Shown here one piece after another: positions 1,010-62,537 of a stretch of 64,000 nucleotides of DNA. The translations under genes were made by a program, and so were the position numbers. Origin of the DNA: Eledone cirrhosa (lineage: Eukaryota); assembly GCA_964016885.1 (NCBI GenBank), contig OZ024759.1, positions 17,546,001 to 17,610,000 of the forward strand, given 5' to 3'. Positions within the stretch are counted from its first letter, which is position 1; each line of letters begins with the position of its first letter. The notes under the pieces were generated by a model that was not told the origin of the DNA, did not search any database, and saw nothing but the letters and a program-made list of their open reading frames with translations.

Positions 1010-1220
1010 TATCCCGGGTTCAAAGAGGGGGCGGGGGTGTAACCACTGTAAGAAAGGTACTCAAAGCATAGCAGAGTATAAGTGTTTAATATAGAAATGG
1101 CTTCTACAGGACTGGAACTGTTTCATTCAAAGGAAATCATCATCTTTCCTGGTGATTTCCTTCGAATAAAACAATTCTAGTCCTGTAGAAGCCATTTCTA
1201 TAGCAAACATTTATACTCTG

Positions 1221-1224
<4 letters not shown>
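1010..1224 (-). mobile_element. Fold-back element family P2 (hammerhead-containing), copy 1
   Basis: Imperfect palindrome at about 1068..1224. Arms carry TGATGA/CTGGTGA-TTTC..GAAT-GAAACAG..CTGTA. The tail is homologous to 13134..13200. Confidence 0.7.
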
Positions 1225-2810: not shown

Positions 2811-2841
2811 AATAATAATAATGATGGTAATAGATATAATA

Positions 2842-3770
2842 ATTGTTTCTACTTTTGGCACAGGGCCAGCAATTACTCCAGTGTATTACTGGTATTTTAT
2901 TTTATTGACCTCCGTAAGGATAATAATTAATGATAATAATAATAATTGTTTCTACTTTGGGCACAGGGCCAGCAATTACCCCAGTGCATTACTGGTATTT
3001 TATTTTATTGACCTCCGTAAGGATAATAATTAATGATAATAATAATAATTGTTTCTACTTTGGGCACAGGGCCAGCAATTACCCCAGTGCATTACTGGTA
3101 TTTTATTTTATTGACCTCCGTAAGGATAATAATTAATGATAATAATAATAATTGTTTCTACGTTGGGCACAGGGCCAGCAATTACCCCAGTGCATTACTG
3201 GTATTTTATTTTATTGACCTCCGTAAGGATAATAATTAATGATAATAATAATAATTGTTTCTACTTTGGGCACAGGGCCAGCAATTACCCCAGTGCATTA
3301 CTGGTATTTTATTTTATTGACCTCCGTAAGGATAATAATTAATGATAATAATAATAATTGTTTCTACTTTGGGCACAGGGCCAGCAATTACCCCAGTGCA
3401 TTACTGGTATTTTATTTTATTGACCTCCGTAAGGATAATAATTAATGATAATAATAATAATTGTTTCTACTTTGGGCACAGGGCCAGCAATTACCCCAGT
3501 GCATTACTGGTATTTTATTTTATTGACCTCCGTAAGGATAATAATTAATGATAATAATAATAATTGTTTCTACTTTGGGCACAGGGCCAGCAATTACCCC
3601 AGTGCATTACTGGTATTTTATTTTATTGACCTCCGTAAGGATAATAATTAATGATAATAATAATAATTGTTTCTACTTTGGGCACAGGGCCAGCAATTAC
3701 CCCAGTGCATTACTGGTATTTTATTTTATTGACCTCCGTAAGGATAATAATTAATGATAATAATAATTGT
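2842..3770. repeat. 103-bp tandem repeat (~9 copies) derived from the SINE A 3' half
   Basis: The unit attgtttctactttgggcacagggccagcaattacccc...ccgtaaggataataattaatgataataataata recurs every 103 nt and is almost invariant. Confidence 0.95.
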
Positions 3771-4002: not shown

Positions 4003-4765
4003 TTTGTTTCTGATTTCGGTACAAGGCCGACAATTTTAGGGGAAGGGAAAGAGTCAATTAAATCGTACTTTATTTTATCAATCTTGTAAAGATGAAAACC
4101 AAAGTTAACCTCAGCGGGAGGATTTGAACTCGGAGCGTAAAGAGCCGTGACTCTATGCCGCAAAGCATGTTACCCAACGCTCTACCGATACTGCCAATCC
4201 ACCGCTCTTAACAACAGTGTTAATAATAATGATAATAATTGTTTCTACTTTTGGCACAAGGCCAGCAATTATCCCAGTGCATTACTGGTACTTTATTTTA
4301 TCGACCCCATAGGGATGAAAGGCAAAGTTAACCTCAGTGGGATTTGAATTCAGACCGTAAGGGACCGCAACTCTATGCTGCAAAGCATGGCGTCCGACCC
4401 TCTACCGATACTGCCAAAATAATAATGGTTTCTGATTAAGGCACAAGGCCAACAACTTTTGGGGAGGAGAAAATCGCATAAAATGACCCGAGTGCGTTAC
4501 TGGTACTTTATTTTATTGTCCCCATATGGATGAAAGACAAAGCTAACCTTGGTGAGAATTAAACTAAAAAATAATAATAACAATTGTTTCTACTTTAGGC
4601 ACAAGGCCAGCAATTTGAAGGGGAGAGGGGAAAGTCAATTAAATCGACCCCAGTGCATTACTGGTGCTTTAATTTGGTGGGATTTGAACTCAGATCATAA
4701 AGGGCCATAACTCTATACTGCGAAGCAGGGTGTTTGGCACTCTACCGATGCTGTCAATCCACCAC
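4003..4765 (-). mobile_element. SINE A cluster (4 copies, some truncated)
   Basis: Same B box and core motifs as family A. Confidence 0.8.
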
Positions 4766-7856: not shown

Positions 7857-7880
7857 ATATCATGTATATATATTTATATA

Positions 7881-8074
7881 TAGGAAAATGTTCAATACCT
7901 CGACAGCAGAGCTCAAGCTGTTTCGACAACTATTTCTGGACTGAAATAGCCGTTGATACGGCTTGAGCTCTGCTGTCGGGGTCTTGAACATTTTCCTATT
8001 ACCCACTCTACTACCTAAGTATTGAGTACTCTGATGCGTTATGGTCCATCTGGTTCCTAACAACACTTCCTTTG

Positions 8075-8076
<2 letters not shown>
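7881..8076 (+). mobile_element. Fold-back element family P1, copy 3
   Basis: Palindrome at 7881..7998 with the same tail and (TA)n flanks. Confidence 0.75.
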
Positions 8077-12718: not shown

Positions 12719-12969
12719 GAAATATCTATGATCGTCGGCAAATCACTGATGAGGGACTCATTTTATTACATGTTATCCATGCGCTACCTGCAGTATTTTT
12801 CTCTATATTTTATTATATATATATATATATATAGTAGATTTTAAATTTCATACACTTAACCTGTATGCATGATCTTAAGTTTTGGGGTCCATTTTATGGC
12901 CACCACTGTATAGTGGAGGAGTTGCTTCAAAACTGGCCTCCCTTCAGGCGCTAAGACAAAATCCAAATA

Positions 12970-13013
<44 letters not shown>

Positions 13014-13015
<2 letters not shown>

Positions 13016-13199
13016 TTTTAATATAGATGAGATTCTACAGGACTAGAACTGTTTCATTCATTAGAAATCATCCTGATGATTTCTAATGAATGAAACAGTT
13101 CTAGTCCTGTAGAATCTCATCTATATTAAAACTTTTATACTCTGCTATGTATTGAGTACCTTACTTACTGTGGTTACCTCCGATTCAACCCGGAATAAC

Positions 13200-13200
<1 letters not shown>
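13014..13200 (+). mobile_element. Fold-back element family P2, copy 2, with perfect 59-bp arms and hammerhead core
   Basis: 13014..13072 is the exact reverse complement of 13075..13133. CTGATGA at 13073 is followed by TTTCTAATGAAT-GAAACAG..CTGT-A-GAATCTC. (TA)n flanks. Confidence 0.8.
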
Positions 13201-13234
<34 letters not shown>

Positions 13235-23977: not shown

Positions 23978-25657
23978 TCAAAATTTTGCAGTGGCTTTAC
24001 GGCAGAGGATAATGTGAATGAATGCCTTACGGAAATCCTCATTAAAGATTGTGTAGAGCAAAGGGTTAAGGGTTGAATTGACATAACCAAGCCAAATGAT
24101 AAAGGACTGCACATGTGGATTGATTCCACAGTTTGAGCAGAAGCTACGAATGACATACATAAAGGTAAATGGCATCCAACAGAGGCAGAAAATTGCCATG
24201 ATTAGTGCCATACGTTTAGTTGCTCTCTGTTCTCGTTGCTCGAACCGACGTTTGACATTGGCATTCATCATCGCCGGCTTTGTTGACTTTTCTGGCATTT
24301 TCTGTAGAGTATGCACCCTGTGTTTCCCTTTGCGGGACTTGGTATCATTCTTGGAAAGCTCACTGATGATATTAATGGCTCTCTGTCGCATTGTCTTTGA
24401 AGCCTTTGTATTGGCCGCCAATTCATCGGGTTTCTCCAGTGTTGCTTTTGAATCTGCTGGAACAGTTACACCTGTTGCTCCTGTACAGTTCTCTTTTTCT
24501 GAGTCACTGTGGGACGTTGATGTCACCATTAGCAGCTCTCTTTCAGAATCGGTTGTCTCGGGGGCACATTTCAGCAACTGGCCTTCCAGTTTTGTGGCAT
24601 TACTAGTGGTATCACTCTCCGAGGACATGACCAGTATCGTAGTTTTGTCTGCATGGTCATCATCAGTCAAAGCCGACTCATCTGTTTCGATAGACAGTAG
24701 TTGACTGCTCTGACGGTTGTCGGCTGGCCACATATTACCGTTGGTTGTCTGTTTTTCCAGTGGATGCATTTCAAATGTTTCTTCTGTTTTCGGTGAAGAC
24801 ACAGTGGATTTTTCTTTTGAGTTTTTGAACTGGGTCTGGCCTTGGATTTTTGCTTGTCGCGCCTTTGACCGTTTTCGTAGTTCCATAAAAATACGCACAT
24901 AAATAAAAAACATCAAGAACATTGGTATTATAAAAGAACCGAATGCTGAGTAGAGCACGAAGCTCTTTGTCATGAACAAAATACAGTCATTTGCTTTAAT
25001 GAGGCTATTGAACTGAAAGAACGTCGATAACATATGGCGCCAACCGATGAATGGCGCAATTGAGACTACAATAGAAAAGAGCCAAACTGTGATGATGTAA
25101 AAGACAGCACGCTTTGAAGTATCTTGTGTTTGGTACCAAATTGGATAGACAGTAGCTGTGTATCTATCGACAGCAATTGTACACAAACCCCAAATAGAAG
25201 CAGTACAATACAAAACATCTAAGCACAACCACATCATGCATGTAATATTTCCGAATACCCAGTACCCGAGTACATCGTAGCTTGCCGATATCGGAAGTAC
25301 TGTTAAAGACAACAAGAAATCACTTATAGCCAGGTTGCCTATCAGGCAGTTTGATAAAGTTCTCAGCCCTTTGTATTTGTATAAGGCTAGAAGCACCATG
25401 AAATTGCCGAATAATGTCAGCAGTGTTAGAAATCCTAATATTATCGCAACAATTAAAAAAACAATGAAGGAATCATAACGAGTTGAACAGATCGGTTCCT
25501 GCAGAAGCCACCCAGATGCATTAACACCACATGGGTATGATTTGTTAAACCATTCACTTTCATTAAAATTTTGTTCTAAGTCTTTCAATTTTGAGTCATT
25601 TGGTACCTTCACATCTGCGAACAAGTCGTCTTTTGTCAAGAATTTTGAAGAATTCAT
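23978..25657 (-). CDS. Class A aminergic GPCR, tyramine/octopamine (alpha-adrenergic-like) receptor-like, 559 aa, intronless CDS
   Basis: Seven hydrophobic segments with class A motifs: TM1 GNxxV; TM2 NLAISD; TM3 CLDVLYCTASIWGLCTIAVDRY (Asp3.32, DRY); TM4 W; TM5 YSAFGSFIIP (Ser5.42, Ser5.46); long ICL3; TM6 CWMPF; TM7 WLGYVNSTLNPLLY; helix 8 FRKAF; short tail with a Cys. N-terminal N-glycosylation sequons are present. Confidence 0.95.
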   Translation of the reverse strand: MNSSKFLTKDDLFADVKVPNDSKLKDLEQNFNESEWFNKSYPCGVNASGWLLQEPICSTRYDSFIVFLIVAIILGFLTLLTLFGNFMVLLALYKYKGLRTLSNCLIGNLAISDFLLSLTVLPISASYDVLGYWVFGNITCMMWLCLDVLYCTASIWGLCTIAVDRYTATVYPIWYQTQDTSKRAVFYIITVWLFSIVVSIAPFIGWRHMLSTFFQFNSLIKANDCILFMTKSFVLYSAFGSFIIPMFLMFFIYVRIFMELRKRSKARQAKIQGQTQFKNSKEKSTVSSPKTEETFEMHPLEKQTTNGNMWPADNRQSSQLLSIETDESALTDDDHADKTTILVMSSESDTTSNATKLEGQLLKCAPETTDSERELLMVTSTSHSDSEKENCTGATGVTVPADSKATLEKPDELAANTKASKTMRQRAINIISELSKNDTKSRKGKHRVHTLQKMPEKSTKPAMMNANVKRRFEQREQRATKRMALIMAIFCLCWMPFTFMYVIRSFCSNCGINPHVQSFIIWLGYVNSTLNPLLYTIFNEDFRKAFIHIILCRKATAKF

Positions 25658-25835
25658 TTTTGCATCCCTCTTGACTTAAAATCTGTTTAAAATCGTGTTA
25701 ATGCATGTTTTACCTTGTGTTATTTAAATCATGTTGTTGTTGTTGTAGAAAGTTCTTTTTTTTCCCATTTGTCTCACGTTGTCTTCTCTTCACTACATTG
25801 CTAAATGCTCACCTTCAGTTAAGTGCGTTTTCCAG

Positions 25836-36912: not shown

Positions 36913-37051
36913 TATTTATTGTTAGCACAGATTAAAAGTTTAAGCAAACAATTTCTGATTTCTCTCTAAAGCGACATCTTCAGAAGATCTCGCTTTAGGG
37001 TGAAATCCGACATTGTTTGCTTAAACTTTTAATCTGCGCTAACAATAAATA
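36913..37051. mobile_element. Fold-back element family P3 (hammerhead-like core at the apex)
   Basis: About 68-bp imperfect arms centred on atcttcagaagat (CTGAAGA on the minus strand), with GAAA after a short stem. Related non-palindromic fragments lie at about 19683..19750 and 31520..31550. Confidence 0.6.
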
Positions 37052-40097: not shown

Positions 40098-41431
40098 TTA
40101 CAGTGATACTCCAACATGGCTGAAGTCAAATGACTGAAGCCAGTGAAAGAATAAGAGAATGGTTTAGAGAGGCTTAAAATGATATCACATGAATACTAAG
40201 ACTGCTGGTTGTATTGAACCCCTAGATCTTGTTAAAACATGTCCAAGGAGATGAAAAACTTTACATCCAAATCACACTTGCTGTGTTTAGAACAGACCTC
40301 CAATAATGGGATAAATAGTTTCACCATCTTGTGAATGCCAAGAATTGCAGAATATTATGAGTAGCAATATAATGACAGTGCTCCAGTATGGCCACATCTA
40401 AATATGTGAAAGCTGTAAAAGTGTTGACAAAAAGTTATTTAACTTTCAATGGCCTGTACCTCATGGGACCACATTAAGAGGACTTTCTTGAAAAGTAAAA
40501 TAAAATAAATATATAAATAGAAACATCACATTAAATATTGATGTGCTTACTCCAATATTACGAATTTCCACAATGATCACTCTACTAATAAAGGTACTAT
40601 AAATATCTGAATTAACAAAACCTGATTTGAAATATTTTCTGCTAAACAAGATGTTAAGAGTTTAAAAAGTTAAATCTTTAGTCTAAAACTGTAAATTTTC
40701 ACAAGGAAGGATAAATATTTTTAAATGGGCTGTTTGTATATTTCAAGTTGGTTTGGTAGCCAAAGAATGTTTCTTTTTCTTCTTCCCATGACTACTGATG
40801 GAGTTGTAAGGGCACCATATTGACATAGCATTTGCAGGGCATTTTTAAACCTAGCAGAACCCATCTCCTCGCCAGGCCTGAGTTCAGCAGATTTCTTCCA
40901 GATAAGGATAGTGAGTGAGAGAGAATGGAAGTGTGAAAGAAATACAGAGGAGGAATTGACTCCAGTACTTTACTGGTACTTTGTTATTGACCTTGAATTG
41001 GTGAAAGGCAAAGTTGGAAATGGCAGGATTTGAACTCAGAGAGCCGAAATGAATGCTGCAAAGCATTCTAACCGACATTCTAATCACTCTGCTAATTTAC
41101 CACCTTAAAGGATGTTCAGATTTAAATAATACATATTTTTTATATAAGCCACACAGTTTGATTTAAATAAATATAGTTTAGTTGAAAAATATCAGAAATA
41201 AGTTTATATTGTCTTAGGGGATGGGTGAAAACTGTAAATTTTCACAATGTAGGATAAATATTTTAAAGTGAACAGTATTGTAACTTATATTTAAGGTGGT
41301 TTGGTAAACAAAGGATGTTAAGAGTTAATACATATTTCTTATATAGGTCACACAGCTTGATTTATATATATATATATATATATATACATTATACTTTATA
41401 TATATATAAATATAATGTATATATATATAAG

Positions 41432-41593
41432 ATTCCAATAACAATAAAATACAGCTATTGATCTAATTGATGTACACCCTGCCCCTAAGACACTAAGACA
41501 ATCTGATTTATATAAGATATATATATAAATATCTTATATAAATCAAATTGTCCATCAATTAGATCAATAGCTATATTTTATTGTTATTGGAAT
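41432..41593. repeat. Long palindrome centred on (TA)n with a ~24-nt insertion in the left arm
   Basis: attccaataacaataaaata...atataagatat pairs with atatcttatat...tattttattgttattggaat. Confidence 0.8.
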
Positions 41594-42001
41594 TTTTTTT
41601 TTTTTAGCTTAAATCCCAATAGATGTATGACTAAGTCAAGCCCTGTCCCCATCAGGATATACAAATTCTGAACACCAAGACTAAAATGAACTTAATACAG
41701 TTAAAGTAGACAGACAGTTCAGTGTTTCTTGTAACTCATTGGGTTTTGATTTTGTTCTTCTACATCTATTTTTATTTATTTCATTTTATTTATACTGGTT
41801 TGGTTTAGGTGGAGGAAGTGTCGAAGTAGTAGTTTTTACAGATCGATGCTCTTCTTATAACTAATCAATCAACCATGAAGTCGAGGCTGAACCTGTGTTT
41901 TGTCAGCAGAAGTGAAGCAGAGGTATCTGCTTTGCTCACAGCCACACTACAATGATTGTACTAAGTTCATGATGATGGTGATCAATAGTCCTGCAACTTA
42001 A

Positions 42002-42542: not shown

Positions 42543-42892
42543 TATTTCTACTTTTGGCAGAAGACCAGTAATTACCCCAGTGCATTACTGGTGCTTTATT
42601 GGTAGAGCATCAGACAGCATGCTTTGCAGCACAGAGTTATGTCCCTTTACGTTTTGAGTTCAAATCCCGTCGCGTTTAACTTTGCTTTTCATCCTTATGG
42701 GGTCGATAAAATAAAGCACCAGTAATGTACTGGGGAAATAGCTGGCTTTGTGCTTAAAGTAGAAACATTATTTTATCGACCCCATAAGGATGAAATGCAA
42801 AGCTAACCTCAACGGGATTTGAACTCAGAACGTAAAGGGCCATAACTCTATGCTGCAAAGCATGGTGTCTGATGCTCTACCAATACTGCCAA
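42543..42892. mobile_element. SINE A (+, ~42598..42770) nested inside SINE A (-)
   Basis: The minus-strand copy is interrupted at tttatt and resumes at ttttatcgacccc. Confidence 0.75.
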
Positions 42893-54149: not shown

Positions 54150-54870
54150 TTGATATGTATGGAACTGTAACTCTCAGCGGAGATGTTGGCCCATCATCAT
54201 GACATATAGCATTTGTTTGGGCATTTAAAACCTAGTACAGTCCGTTCCCTCTCCAGGTCTGTGCACAGCTGATTTCTTCCAGAGAGGGAGAGAGAGAGAG
54301 AGAAAGAAAGAAAGAAAGAGAGGTAGTGAAAAATATAGAGGAAGACTTGACCCCAGTGTTGGACTGGAACTTTTTTTTAATGACCTCGAAAGGATGAAAG
54401 GCAAAGTACACTTCAACAGAATTTGAACTCAGGGTTCAGAGAGCCAAAAGAAAAACAAATCATTCTGTCCAACATTCTAATGACTCAACCAATCCACCAC
54501 AGCAATATTTGATATAAACTATACGAAACATAGGTGGCGAATTGGTAGAGTTGTTAGAACATCAGATAGAATGCTCTATGGTATTCATTCCAGCTCTCTG
54601 CTCTTTGAGTTCAAATCCTGCTGAGGTGAACTTTGCCTTTCATCCTTTGGAGGTCAATAAAAAAAAAAAAATACCAGTCTAGTACTGGGGTCAATTCTTC
54701 CTCTATATCTCTTTCCTATTTCCTTTCTCTTACCCTCTATCCTTCTGTGGAAGAAATCTGCTGTACTCAGGTCTGGAGAGGGATGGGCTCCACCAGTTTT
54801 AAAATGCCCAAGAAATGCCATATGTCAATGTGGCACCCCTATGACTCTATCAGGAGTTACGGGACCATAC
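54150..54870. mobile_element. Head-to-head pair of SINE A-related composite elements (related copies at ~11345..11675, 21215..21560, 40780..41105)
   Basis: SINE A-like head and core with a different 3' extension (gaagaaatc...tttaaaatgccc...gagttac). The minus copy spans 54150..54500 and the plus copy 54532..54870. Confidence 0.65.
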
Positions 54871-58526: not shown

Positions 58527-58957
58527 ATGTGTCTGAATGTATGTGTCTACGTGCAGTGAGATACACCAGTTTTTAAAAAACTCCAGAGCACCAAAGAACA
58601 TAGAGAACACTTATATACAAACATATACATATATATAAATATACAAACATATACATATATATACATATCTATATATATATATCTTTTTCTCTGTCTGTAC
58701 TTGCTCTGTTCCACTGGCTTCTATTAAAGTTTTGTTTTCTTCTGTTTTCTTTTCTTTATTTGTTTGTGCGTTTGTTTTTTCTAGATCTCTGATTGTGGAA
58801 GTAATCTACCTTGTAATTGGTCCTTCTTTAGATTCTTTTGATTCAACAACCCTTCCTTTGCCTGACATGTCTTTAGTTCTCTGTGTTCTTTGGTGCTCTG
58901 GAGTTTTTTAAAAACTGGTGTATCTCACTGCACGTAGACACATACATTCAGACACAT
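58527..58957. repeat. 82-bp inverted repeat pair (58527..58608 and 58876..58957)
   Basis: Near-perfect reverse complement with about one mismatch and a ~267-nt spacer. Confidence 0.85.
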
Positions 58958-60232
58958 ACACATACATTGAGACACATACACATACATTCAGACAGTTACA
59001 CATACATTCAGACACTTACACATACATTCAGACACTTACACATACATTCAGACACTTACACATACATTGAGACACATACACATACATTGAGACACTTACA
59101 CATACATTCAGACACGTACACATACATTGAGACACATACACATACATTGAGACAGTTACACATACATTCAGACACATACACATACATTCAGACACTTACA
59201 CATACATTGAGACACATACACATACATTGAGACACATACACATACATTCAGACACATACACATACATTCAGACACTTACACATACATTCAGACACATACA
59301 CATACATTGAGACACATACACATACATTCAGACACATACACATACATTCAGACACATACACATACATTCAGACACTTACACATACATTCAGACACATACA
59401 CATACATTGAGACACATACACATACATTGAGACACATACACATACATTCAGACACTTACACATACATTCAGACACTTACACATACATTCAGACACTTACA
59501 CATAGATTCAGACACTTACACATAGATTCAGACACATACACATACATTCAGACACATACACATACATTCAGACACCTACACATACATTTAGACACATACA
59601 CATACATTCAGACACATACACATACATTCATACACATACACATACATTCATACACATACACATACATTCATACACATACACATACATTCAGACACATACA
59701 CATACATTCAGACACATACACATACATTCAGACACATACACATACATTGAGACACTTACACATACATTCAGACACATACACATACATTCAGACACTTACA
59801 CATACATTCAGACACATACACATACATTCAGACGCATACACATACATTCAGATGCATACATATACATTCAGACGCATACACATACATTCAGACGCATACA
59901 CATACATTCAGACGCATACACATACATTCAGACGCATACATATACATTCAGACACATACACATACATTCAGACACATACACATACGTTGAGACACATACA
60001 CATACATTCAGACACATACACATACATTCAGACGCATACATATACATTCAGATGCATACATATACATTCAGACACATACACATACATTCAGACACATACA
60101 CATACATTCAGACACATACACATACACACTTACACATACATTCAGACACTTACACATACATTCAGACACATACACATACATTGAGACACATACACATACA
60201 TTCAGACACTTACACATACATTCAGACACATA
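58937..60232. repeat. 20-bp minisatellite (gacacatacacatacattca)n, ~65 copies
   Basis: Directly visible periodicity. Confidence 0.95.
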
Positions 60233-60641
60233 CATATGCAGGCACATACATCTGCAGACACACACACATAAATGCTGATGCATACGCACACACGCAGACA
60301 TACACATGCATACACACATGCATGCAGACATATACATATACACAGGAACATACACACATACATGCAGACATATACGGTTTAATATATAATTGTTTGTATG
60401 CATGAGCATATATTTATGTGTGTACATGCAAACATATATCTATCTATATATAATGTATATATATATATGTAATATAATGTATATATTTATATATATGTAA
60501 TATATGTATATATATGTAATATATGTATATATATATATATGTATGTAATATATGTATATATATATATATATGTATGTAATATATGTATCTATAATGTAAA
60601 TATATATCTATATATAATGTATATATATATATCTATATATA

Positions 60642-62293: not shown

Positions 62294-62316
62294 CGTCCAT
62301 ATATATATATATATTT

Positions 62317-62470
62317 AAATAATTTTGAAAGCCATGCAATGCACTAGAAAATTAAAATTGCTAGCAAATTTACCGTAGCAAATTTAATGACAAACTTGGT
62401 AAGGTAAGAATCTATTGTTATCTTAGCAATTTTAATTTTCTAGTGCATTGTAGGGTTTTCAAAATTATTT
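62317..62470. repeat. Inverted repeat, ~47-bp arms with ~60-nt spacer
   Basis: aaataattttgaaagccatgcaatgcactagaaaattaaaattgcta pairs with tagcaatttttaattttctagtgcattgtagggttttcaaaattattt. Confidence 0.75.
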
Positions 62471-62537
62471 GAAAATTTGTGTTTCCTATTCAACAATGAT
62501 TCAAGCAAACTACAACATTCTGTTATATATATATATA

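Follow-up and report, generated by a model that had tools for sequence, protein, structure and literature searches.

A perfect 59-bp hairpin turning on a hammerhead box in an octopus genome is probably a recent head-to-head insertion of a Penelope-like repeat

At positions 13014 to 13200 of an octopus sequence, a 187-base insertion in (TA)n forms a flawless hairpin that turns on the CUGAUGA box of a hammerhead ribozyme. Is this a device that controls a ribozyme, or the trace of how a repeat entered the genome? Within the window (the whole 64-kb stretch of DNA analyzed), the insertion consists of two repeat 3' ends placed head to head. We hold with good confidence that these are 3' ends of a very abundant octopus repeat, likely a Hydra-related Penelope-like retroelement, and that the insertion is likely recent and its ribozyme predicted to be inactive. 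The hairpin is most likely an ordinary young insertion scar rather than a regulatory device. The features concerned are as follows.

1010..1224, minus strand: older copy of the same family, oppositely oriented (sequence comparison)
12967..13013, no strand: left (TA)n/(TG)n microsatellite, likely insertion target (sequence)
13014..13072, minus strand: short tail-less inverted arm, 59 bp, copy of 13075-13133 (exact reverse complement)
13071..13072, plus strand: TC, last 2 bases of the stem I 5' strand (core folding; family loose ends)
13073..13079, plus strand: native CUGAUGA box; hairpin axis between C3 and U4 (arms, family reads, core folding)
13080..13091, plus strand: stem II, 3 bp (13081-83/13088-90), with 4-nt loop (13084-87), flanked by U and U
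13092..13111, plus strand: GAAA box, 4-bp stem III, 8-nt loop around a CTAG palindrome, GUA triplet
13112..13117, plus strand: stem I 3' strand GAATCT, whose 6-base partner in other family members is missing here
13134..13200, plus strand: one-sided 67-nt tail, long arm only; element 3' end at 13199-13200
13201..13231, no strand: right (TA)n microsatellite (sequence)

Around a CT loop (13073-13074) stand two 59-base arms (13014-13072 and 13075-13133), each the exact reverse complement of the other, just as the preliminary description had reported, and the two loop letters are letters 1 and 2 of the hammerhead CUGAUGA box. The next outward pair is T/T; thus, the arm ends there. As RNA, the hairpin is predicted to fold into 58 bp with a 4-nt loop (-91 kcal/mol), because a 2-nt loop cannot close. 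It is the sole perfect non-microsatellite hairpin of this arm length in the window: among exact hairpins with arms of at least 18 bases that passed a complexity filter (n = 3), the other two are TA rich. The chance expectation of a perfect 59-bp hairpin is ~1e-27, and the folding z score is -21, with 0 of 200 shuffles folding as well. Because the short arm begins at G5 of the box, it carries no intact box. Its outer end coincides with an end that recurs in the family: in run X24, 482 reads show (TA)n behind it. At the other end of the element, family reads pass into (TA)n/(CA)n behind 13190 to 13198. Since both flanks are (TA)n, a target-site duplication is unreadable at the hairpin.

The conserved hammerhead core is present at the locus (CUGANGA, GAAA, and NUH). 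GAAA occupies 13092 to 13095, stem III pairs 13095-13098 with 13107-13110, and the predicted cut falls after 13111. Stem I is limited to 2 bp (13071-13072 with 13112-13113), the third pair being A/A; base-by-base reading therefore agrees with the initial claim of a full core retaining only 2 bp of stem I. When the window was scanned for the core pattern with up to three mismatches, exactly the four arms of the 13014-13200 and 1010-1224 copies were retrieved, compared with none in 100 shuffles.

Whether the box at the turn belongs to the repeat can be read from other members of the family. Runs aligned to 13004-13208 at 80% likeness yielded family matches in 10,797 contigs (X1), 387 contigs (X5), and 7,007 reads (X24, raw reduced-representation reads); a fourth run, X16, contributed no reads to the comparison. 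Loose ends starting before 13071 were found in 285 contigs, 23 contigs, and 1631 reads, respectively; their presence in all three runs giving data identifies the box at the turn as the native box. Upstream of it, X24 and the tandem joints read AGATTC, the exact partner of GAATCT at 13112-13117, and intact family members have a 6-bp stem I. The complementary strand forecast from this locus (GAGATTC) was thus recovered in six of its seven letters. Variation within the family is highest at 13084 to 13087, which is the loop of the short stem II. Upstream of the box, 7 to 14 shared letters are followed by AT-rich majority strings with an agreement of 0.41 to 0.57. This AT-rich, low-agreement stretch appears, from the aligned letters, to be the 5' edge of the usual unit, ~7 to 14 bases upstream of the box; the blurred majority strings, which derive from mixed reads, could also reflect a mixture of subfamilies.

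Both the family loose ends and the tandem joints start at 13071. The latter run from 13136 to 13071 with 12 to 15 letters between (3 X1 contigs; 79 X24 reads from 16 starts), which gives a tandem unit of ~78 nt seen at other loci and not at the hairpin locus. Each such unit would contain a full hammerhead whose stem I is capped by a 27-nt loop. At these joints, stem I is preceded by a pyrimidine-rich run plus CAG, resembling a splice acceptor; in Drosophila virilis Penelope, an intron end lies at helix I (PMC4209133). Literature searched for octopus hammerheads or for this motif held no description of the family (repeat databases were outside the scope of the search), and the octopus family is possibly undescribed.

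The older copy at 1010-1224 shares 86% identity over 106 bases with the copy at 13014-13200. It had been described as an opposite copy inverting at nearly the same point, and its turn indeed lies within ~6 bases of the box. Its long arm, on the minus strand, has a 58-nt tail; the box, with one mismatch, and the 5 bases preceding it are on its short arm (1143-1224). Of the 75 arm positions that can be aligned, 8 are mismatched.

Beyond the window, 5 of the 16 contig pieces among the matches listed bridge the hairpin center with at least 31 letters on both sides, and they come from two samples. Because these pieces have 4 to 20 other letters and 3 to 7 gaps, they represent other loci with a turn at roughly this position. 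In at least 13 other head-to-head joints, the second arm starts anywhere from 13088 to 13169 (several of these joints being defined by their arm positions rather than by the letters between), and many joints are strongly asymmetric (e.g., 13056 to 13161). An exact turn at CUGAUGA, as first proposed, is therefore a property of the 13014-13200 copy and not a family rule, with many joints lying elsewhere. The pivot near CUGAUGA is recurrent, not obligatory. Eight microsatellite-associated fold-back stubs were compared in the window. Both copies of the hairpin family (P2) and an unrelated stub at 36913-37051 pivot on a CUGANGA box, three stubs of another family (P1) are boxless and pivot 15 to 17 bases before GAAAC, and two further stubs show no box. 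Against a uniform pivot, three of eight on a box is not significant in this window-only comparison (P about 0.06 to 0.1). The predicted cleavage site lies 38 bases downstream of the turn, and the recurrent pivot probably reflects the family 5' edge just upstream of the box.

Several hammerhead-bearing families occur within this one 64-kb window. The P1 stubs (15-216, 818-989, and 7880-8075) are fold-backs in (TA)n with tails of ~75 to 80 nt; they carry a hammerhead 3' half (GAAAC, stem III with a GAGCTC palindrome, and GUC) and no CUGANGA, and their pivots possibly lie in a long stem II. In the P1 copy at 818, the long arm is missing ~23 bases between two short direct repeats. P1 and P2 have a short tail motif in common. 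The hairpin at 36913-37051 differs at 6 of 61 arm positions and pivots on a minus-strand CUGAAGA box, and the decayed stubs at 41429-41596 and 62311-62476 adjoin TA-rich sequence, with no box near their centers. Further CUGANGA...GAAA motifs lie at 381 (minus strand), 5210, 19908, 35926, and 36730, with a stem II ranging from 4 to ~12 bp or longer. Frames with weak RNase H-like (RVT_3) matches at 58877-60405 mark a decayed fragment of a different type of retroelement. A SINE-like repeat of ~190 bases is very abundant, occurring at 1963-2622 and many other places, with tandem runs at 2838-3767; its inverted pairs at 42597-42885 and 54200-54827 could form long double-stranded RNA (dsRNA), too.

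How would such an insertion arise? In the proposed sequence of events, the endonuclease of the element would nick both strands of (TA)n, and reverse transcription would begin at two RNA sites, one corresponding to 13200 (with the tail) and the other to 13133 (without it). Both copies would read through an uncleaved ribozyme and end close to the 5' edge of the template, whereupon the two new DNA ends would be joined head to head via the 2-base TC/GA overlap. TC at 13071-13072, common to both arms, is inferred to be the joining microhomology. On this view, the turn would coincide with CUGAUGA because that is where the unit stops; ribozyme cleavage would play no part in placing it. The hairpin would be a by-product of insertion, entering dsRNA formation and editing only if transcribed. 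The layout matches published ones: Penelope-like insertions include an inverted 5'-truncated copy with a tail at one end (PMC8557442) and head-to-head palindromic junctions (PMC3846280), and minimal hammerheads have been found on opposite strands 100 to 700 bp apart (PMC4209133). When a Penelope-like protein was purified, it cut AT-rich DNA on both strands and extended both; two internal start sites delimit the tail, and its RNA template is mainly uncleaved (PMC11167929).

At the locus itself we found a head-to-head inverted truncated copy, a tail at one end, and a type I hammerhead core; partial tandems occur in the family at other loci only. Against a Penelope assignment, the tails of 67 nt and 58 nt exceed the published 30 to 40 bp. 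Pfam matches among 93 distinct frames, out of 260 window frames of at least 70 amino acids, included no Penelope reverse transcriptase or GIY-YIG domain (coverage is partial for frames outside 3 to 24 kb), and frames near the hairpin held no convincing exon. The Penelope assignment thus leans on architecture and ribozyme form rather than on a linked reverse transcriptase or GIY-YIG frame.

The most serious rival concerns how the second arm was made. A single tail-started cDNA may have stopped at the box, folded back on a TC-AG-GA mini-hairpin, and copied itself over 59 bases. We regard such snap-back self-priming as possible, if on the unlikely side. The arms are identical even in the hypervariable loop, a finding that one self-copied cDNA and two copies of the same source would explain equally well, and the 2-base overlap does form the mini-hairpin that self-priming calls for. 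Self-priming is also the favored reading for palindromic junctions in PMC3846280, and the hairpin at 36913-37051 likewise pivots on the C-U-G of its CUGAAGA box. However, the primer would be very weak (a 2-bp stem with a 2-nt loop), the short arm stops at the recurrent family end seen in the 482 X24 reads, and many family joints are strongly asymmetric, 13056 to 13161 among them. In the older copy, the box and five upstream letters stand on the tail-less arm, so that its longer arm is not a simple self-copy. As read from the sequence, snap-back cannot account for 1010-1224, an exclusion that leans on one old, diverged copy.

With two-site reverse transcription as the preferred origin, we turn to age and authenticity. 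The preliminary description left open whether the hairpin was a recent insertion or an older one whose arms had been homogenized. The arms at 13014-13133 differ at 0 of 59 positions (upper 95% bound, 5%), whereas the older copy has 8 differences in 75 (P = 0.0013). Among the variant rows listed (n = 40), the window carries the X1 majority letter with three exceptions: loop position 13087, its mirror, and a single base beyond the arm. At two tail positions (13179 and 13186), its letter is slightly in the minority in X24 and X5. All seven sampled long-arm words were present in three runs of one sample, perhaps the window's own source, and five to six of the seven were present in four other samples. 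A copy that stays near the family majority along its full length is young, and homogenization of an old copy is correspondingly unlikely; on these letters, recent insertion is the favored reading of the two.

An old insertion later made uniform by intra-hairpin conversion would also leave perfect arms, and palindromes are able to homogenize. We nevertheless judge this very unlikely. Drift would be expected throughout an old copy, whereas the whole long arm, including the tail, follows the family majority; the long-arm words recur across samples as described above; and the older copy in the same window remains unhomogenized. Perfect fold-backs are also a known type of assembly or library artifact, and among the records listed, no contig or read crosses the locus without differences. 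An artifact at this locus is nonetheless highly improbable: the mirror symmetry extends for 59 bases and breaks off at a natural family end without entering the tail or the flank, and an artifact would not be expected to recur with diverged arms, as this layout does elsewhere in the family and in the older copy.

Could the young hairpin be a functional RNA element under selection, serving as a small interfering RNA source, an ADAR substrate, or a ribozyme off-switch? The last of these had been suggested in the form of an antisense arm sequestering the ribozyme. The hairpin does bury the core: in the whole element, all hammerhead pairs have a probability of 0.0, and forcing stems II and III costs ~49 kcal/mol. 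However, no stable stem I is predicted at the locus: its pair probability is 0.0 in the long arm alone, with stems II and III under 0.1, and the isolated core still gives no more than 0.0004. Because stem I was already lost by truncation, sequestration by the antisense arm adds nothing. The hammerhead at this locus is predicted, from these folding models, to be inactive. At gathering score, Rfam had no matches in the 64-kb window, hammerhead included. Around the hairpin, Rfam matches up to an E value of 10 comprised generic hairpins and one weak antisense hammerhead far below threshold, with no sense-strand hammerhead among them.

A duplex of 58 bp would, as modeled, be a good ADAR or Dicer substrate only if transcribed, and the octopus is exceptional both in its rate of hyper-editing and in its dsRNA-forming fraction (PMC5625713). 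The predicted duplex (-91 kcal/mol) and this octopus background are the points in favor of selected function, which we consider a decidedly remote prospect. No host transcript is evident, the nearest recognized gene (an intronless receptor) ending 10.8 kb off, and no RNA data set was among the matches listed for the sampled long-arm words. The ribozyme is crippled even without the antisense arm, all Rfam microRNA matches of the hairpin fall below their gathering scores, and youth and abundance account for the perfect arms without selection. The receptor frame (23978-25675, minus strand) has 91% identity to an Octopus sinensis octopamine receptor 2-like protein, which identifies the window as octopus DNA; the exact protein was not found in the protein cluster collection.

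The remaining candidates can be dismissed briefly. In one practically negligible reading, the hairpin would turn in the loop of a long native stem II (17 bp), and the box would be there by coincidence: a long stem II does occur in other hammerhead-like motifs of the window (35926), and the three P1 hairpins turn at a boxless point before GAAAC, but the family reads refute it, as loose ends lie at 13071 and none near 13055 among the matches listed and variation peaks in the loop of the short stem II. A MITE or Foldback DNA transposon was rejected on account of the one-sided tail, the arm ends and junctions that vary between copies, and the many family members that are not hairpins at the turn point. 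A non-long-terminal-repeat (non-LTR) retrozyme was likewise rejected, the locus being one inverted pair rather than tandem complete hammerheads, with single tandem joints elsewhere.

Taken as an insertion scar, the hairpin locus is one young example among very many, and a clean one. Together, the two copies in the window separate two models of how inverted junctions of Penelope-like elements form. If such stubs are transcribed, they could help explain the dsRNA-forming sequence and hyper-editing of octopus. A broader proposal, which we offer tentatively and consider doubtful, is that undescribed octopus Hydra-like families replicate as a ~140-nt hammerhead-headed RNA, with twin reverse transcription up to the 5' edge of this RNA mass-producing perfect CUGAUGA-pivot hairpins that supply much of the dsRNA hyper-edited by octopus ADARs. 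If this were true, the 78-nt tandem units could yield tiny circles, and the pivots would be a genome-wide footprint of how Penelope-like integration finishes.

Among known systems, the closest likeness is to the insertion units of endonuclease-bearing (EN+) Penelope-like elements (PMC8557442 and PMC3846280). These have the same head-to-head inverted 3' ends with a tail on one arm, a hammerhead near the 3' end, partial tandems, and a microsatellite target. In contrast to them, the hairpin is extremely truncated (187 bases) and lacks coding sequence. The form of the hammerhead speaks for the Hydra clade (PMC8557442). File S2 of that study gives a U...U-flanked stem II (ctgatgat...tgaa) in 14 of 25 families, nearly all of which target (TA)n; both window copies and the family ends adjoin (TA)n as well. 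The 3-bp stem II with its 4-nt loop recurs in Penelope-9_HM, and the ACAG/CTGT-A stem III recurs in Hydra-1_aMil, Penelope-1_NV, and Penelope-1_SK (PMC8557442). The hammerhead likewise lies within ~230 nt of the 3' end in this clade, which is present in Octopus; Penelope-13_HM likewise has an inverted 5'-truncated copy, and Hydra-2_Amil has a short motif near its 3' end that is similar by eye (PMC8557442).

There are differences, too. Loop III is 8 nt here and 1 to 3 nt in the Hydra-clade table, and Hydra-1_Obim, from Octopus, has a different hammerhead from that of the hairpin family (PMC8557442). The exact family motif was not found in those parts of the supplement of Craig et al. 2021 (PMC8557442) that served for comparison. 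The File S2 comparison was made by eye, and the form of the hammerhead is a supporting, not a defining, trait of Hydra elements, which are characterized by protein motifs (RWK, DKT, a CxCX5C linker, and no CCHH) and an open reading frame under 3 kb. By analogy, the family is likely Hydra-like, rather than a proven Hydra member, and is known from its architecture and hammerhead and not from proteins. For the two-strand mechanism, the model is Poseidon PAc of Anolis carolinensis (Frangieh et al. 2024, PMC11167929). The open reading frame of PAc begins inside the hammerhead, whereas here every ATG in the hammerhead core meets a stop within a few codons.

Minimal and dimeric hammerheads of metazoan Penelope-like elements, and non-LTR retrozymes (PMC4209133 and PMC7229834), have the same type I topology and palindromic loop III, and the 6-bp stem I, opposite-strand pairs, and tandem units described for them are also found in the family. 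Unlike these, the locus is inverted and holds no complete ribozyme, and its stem II is formed without the usual G10.1-C11.1 pair. The ~78-nt tandem unit is within the 51 to 972 bp given for retrozyme family units (Li et al. 2026 preprint) and below the 170 to 400 nt of expressed retrozyme circles (PMC7229834).

Farther afield, a 24-base family pattern had no match in metagenomes. A looser core pattern retrieved 12 microbial loci, none of them family members and none with similarity beyond 28 bases. Nine of these, amounting to five distinct sequences, form complete type III hammerheads that share the U...U-flanked 3-bp stem II and are located on microbial and phage contigs (L001, L002, L003, which is the same as L007 to L010, L004, and L006); L001 has a second similar core at 4701-4726. 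Rfam recognized no hammerhead at gathering score in the 8 of 12 loci scanned. Because the same stem II recurs in five distinct type III hammerheads, the short stem II of the octopus family is a natural variant.
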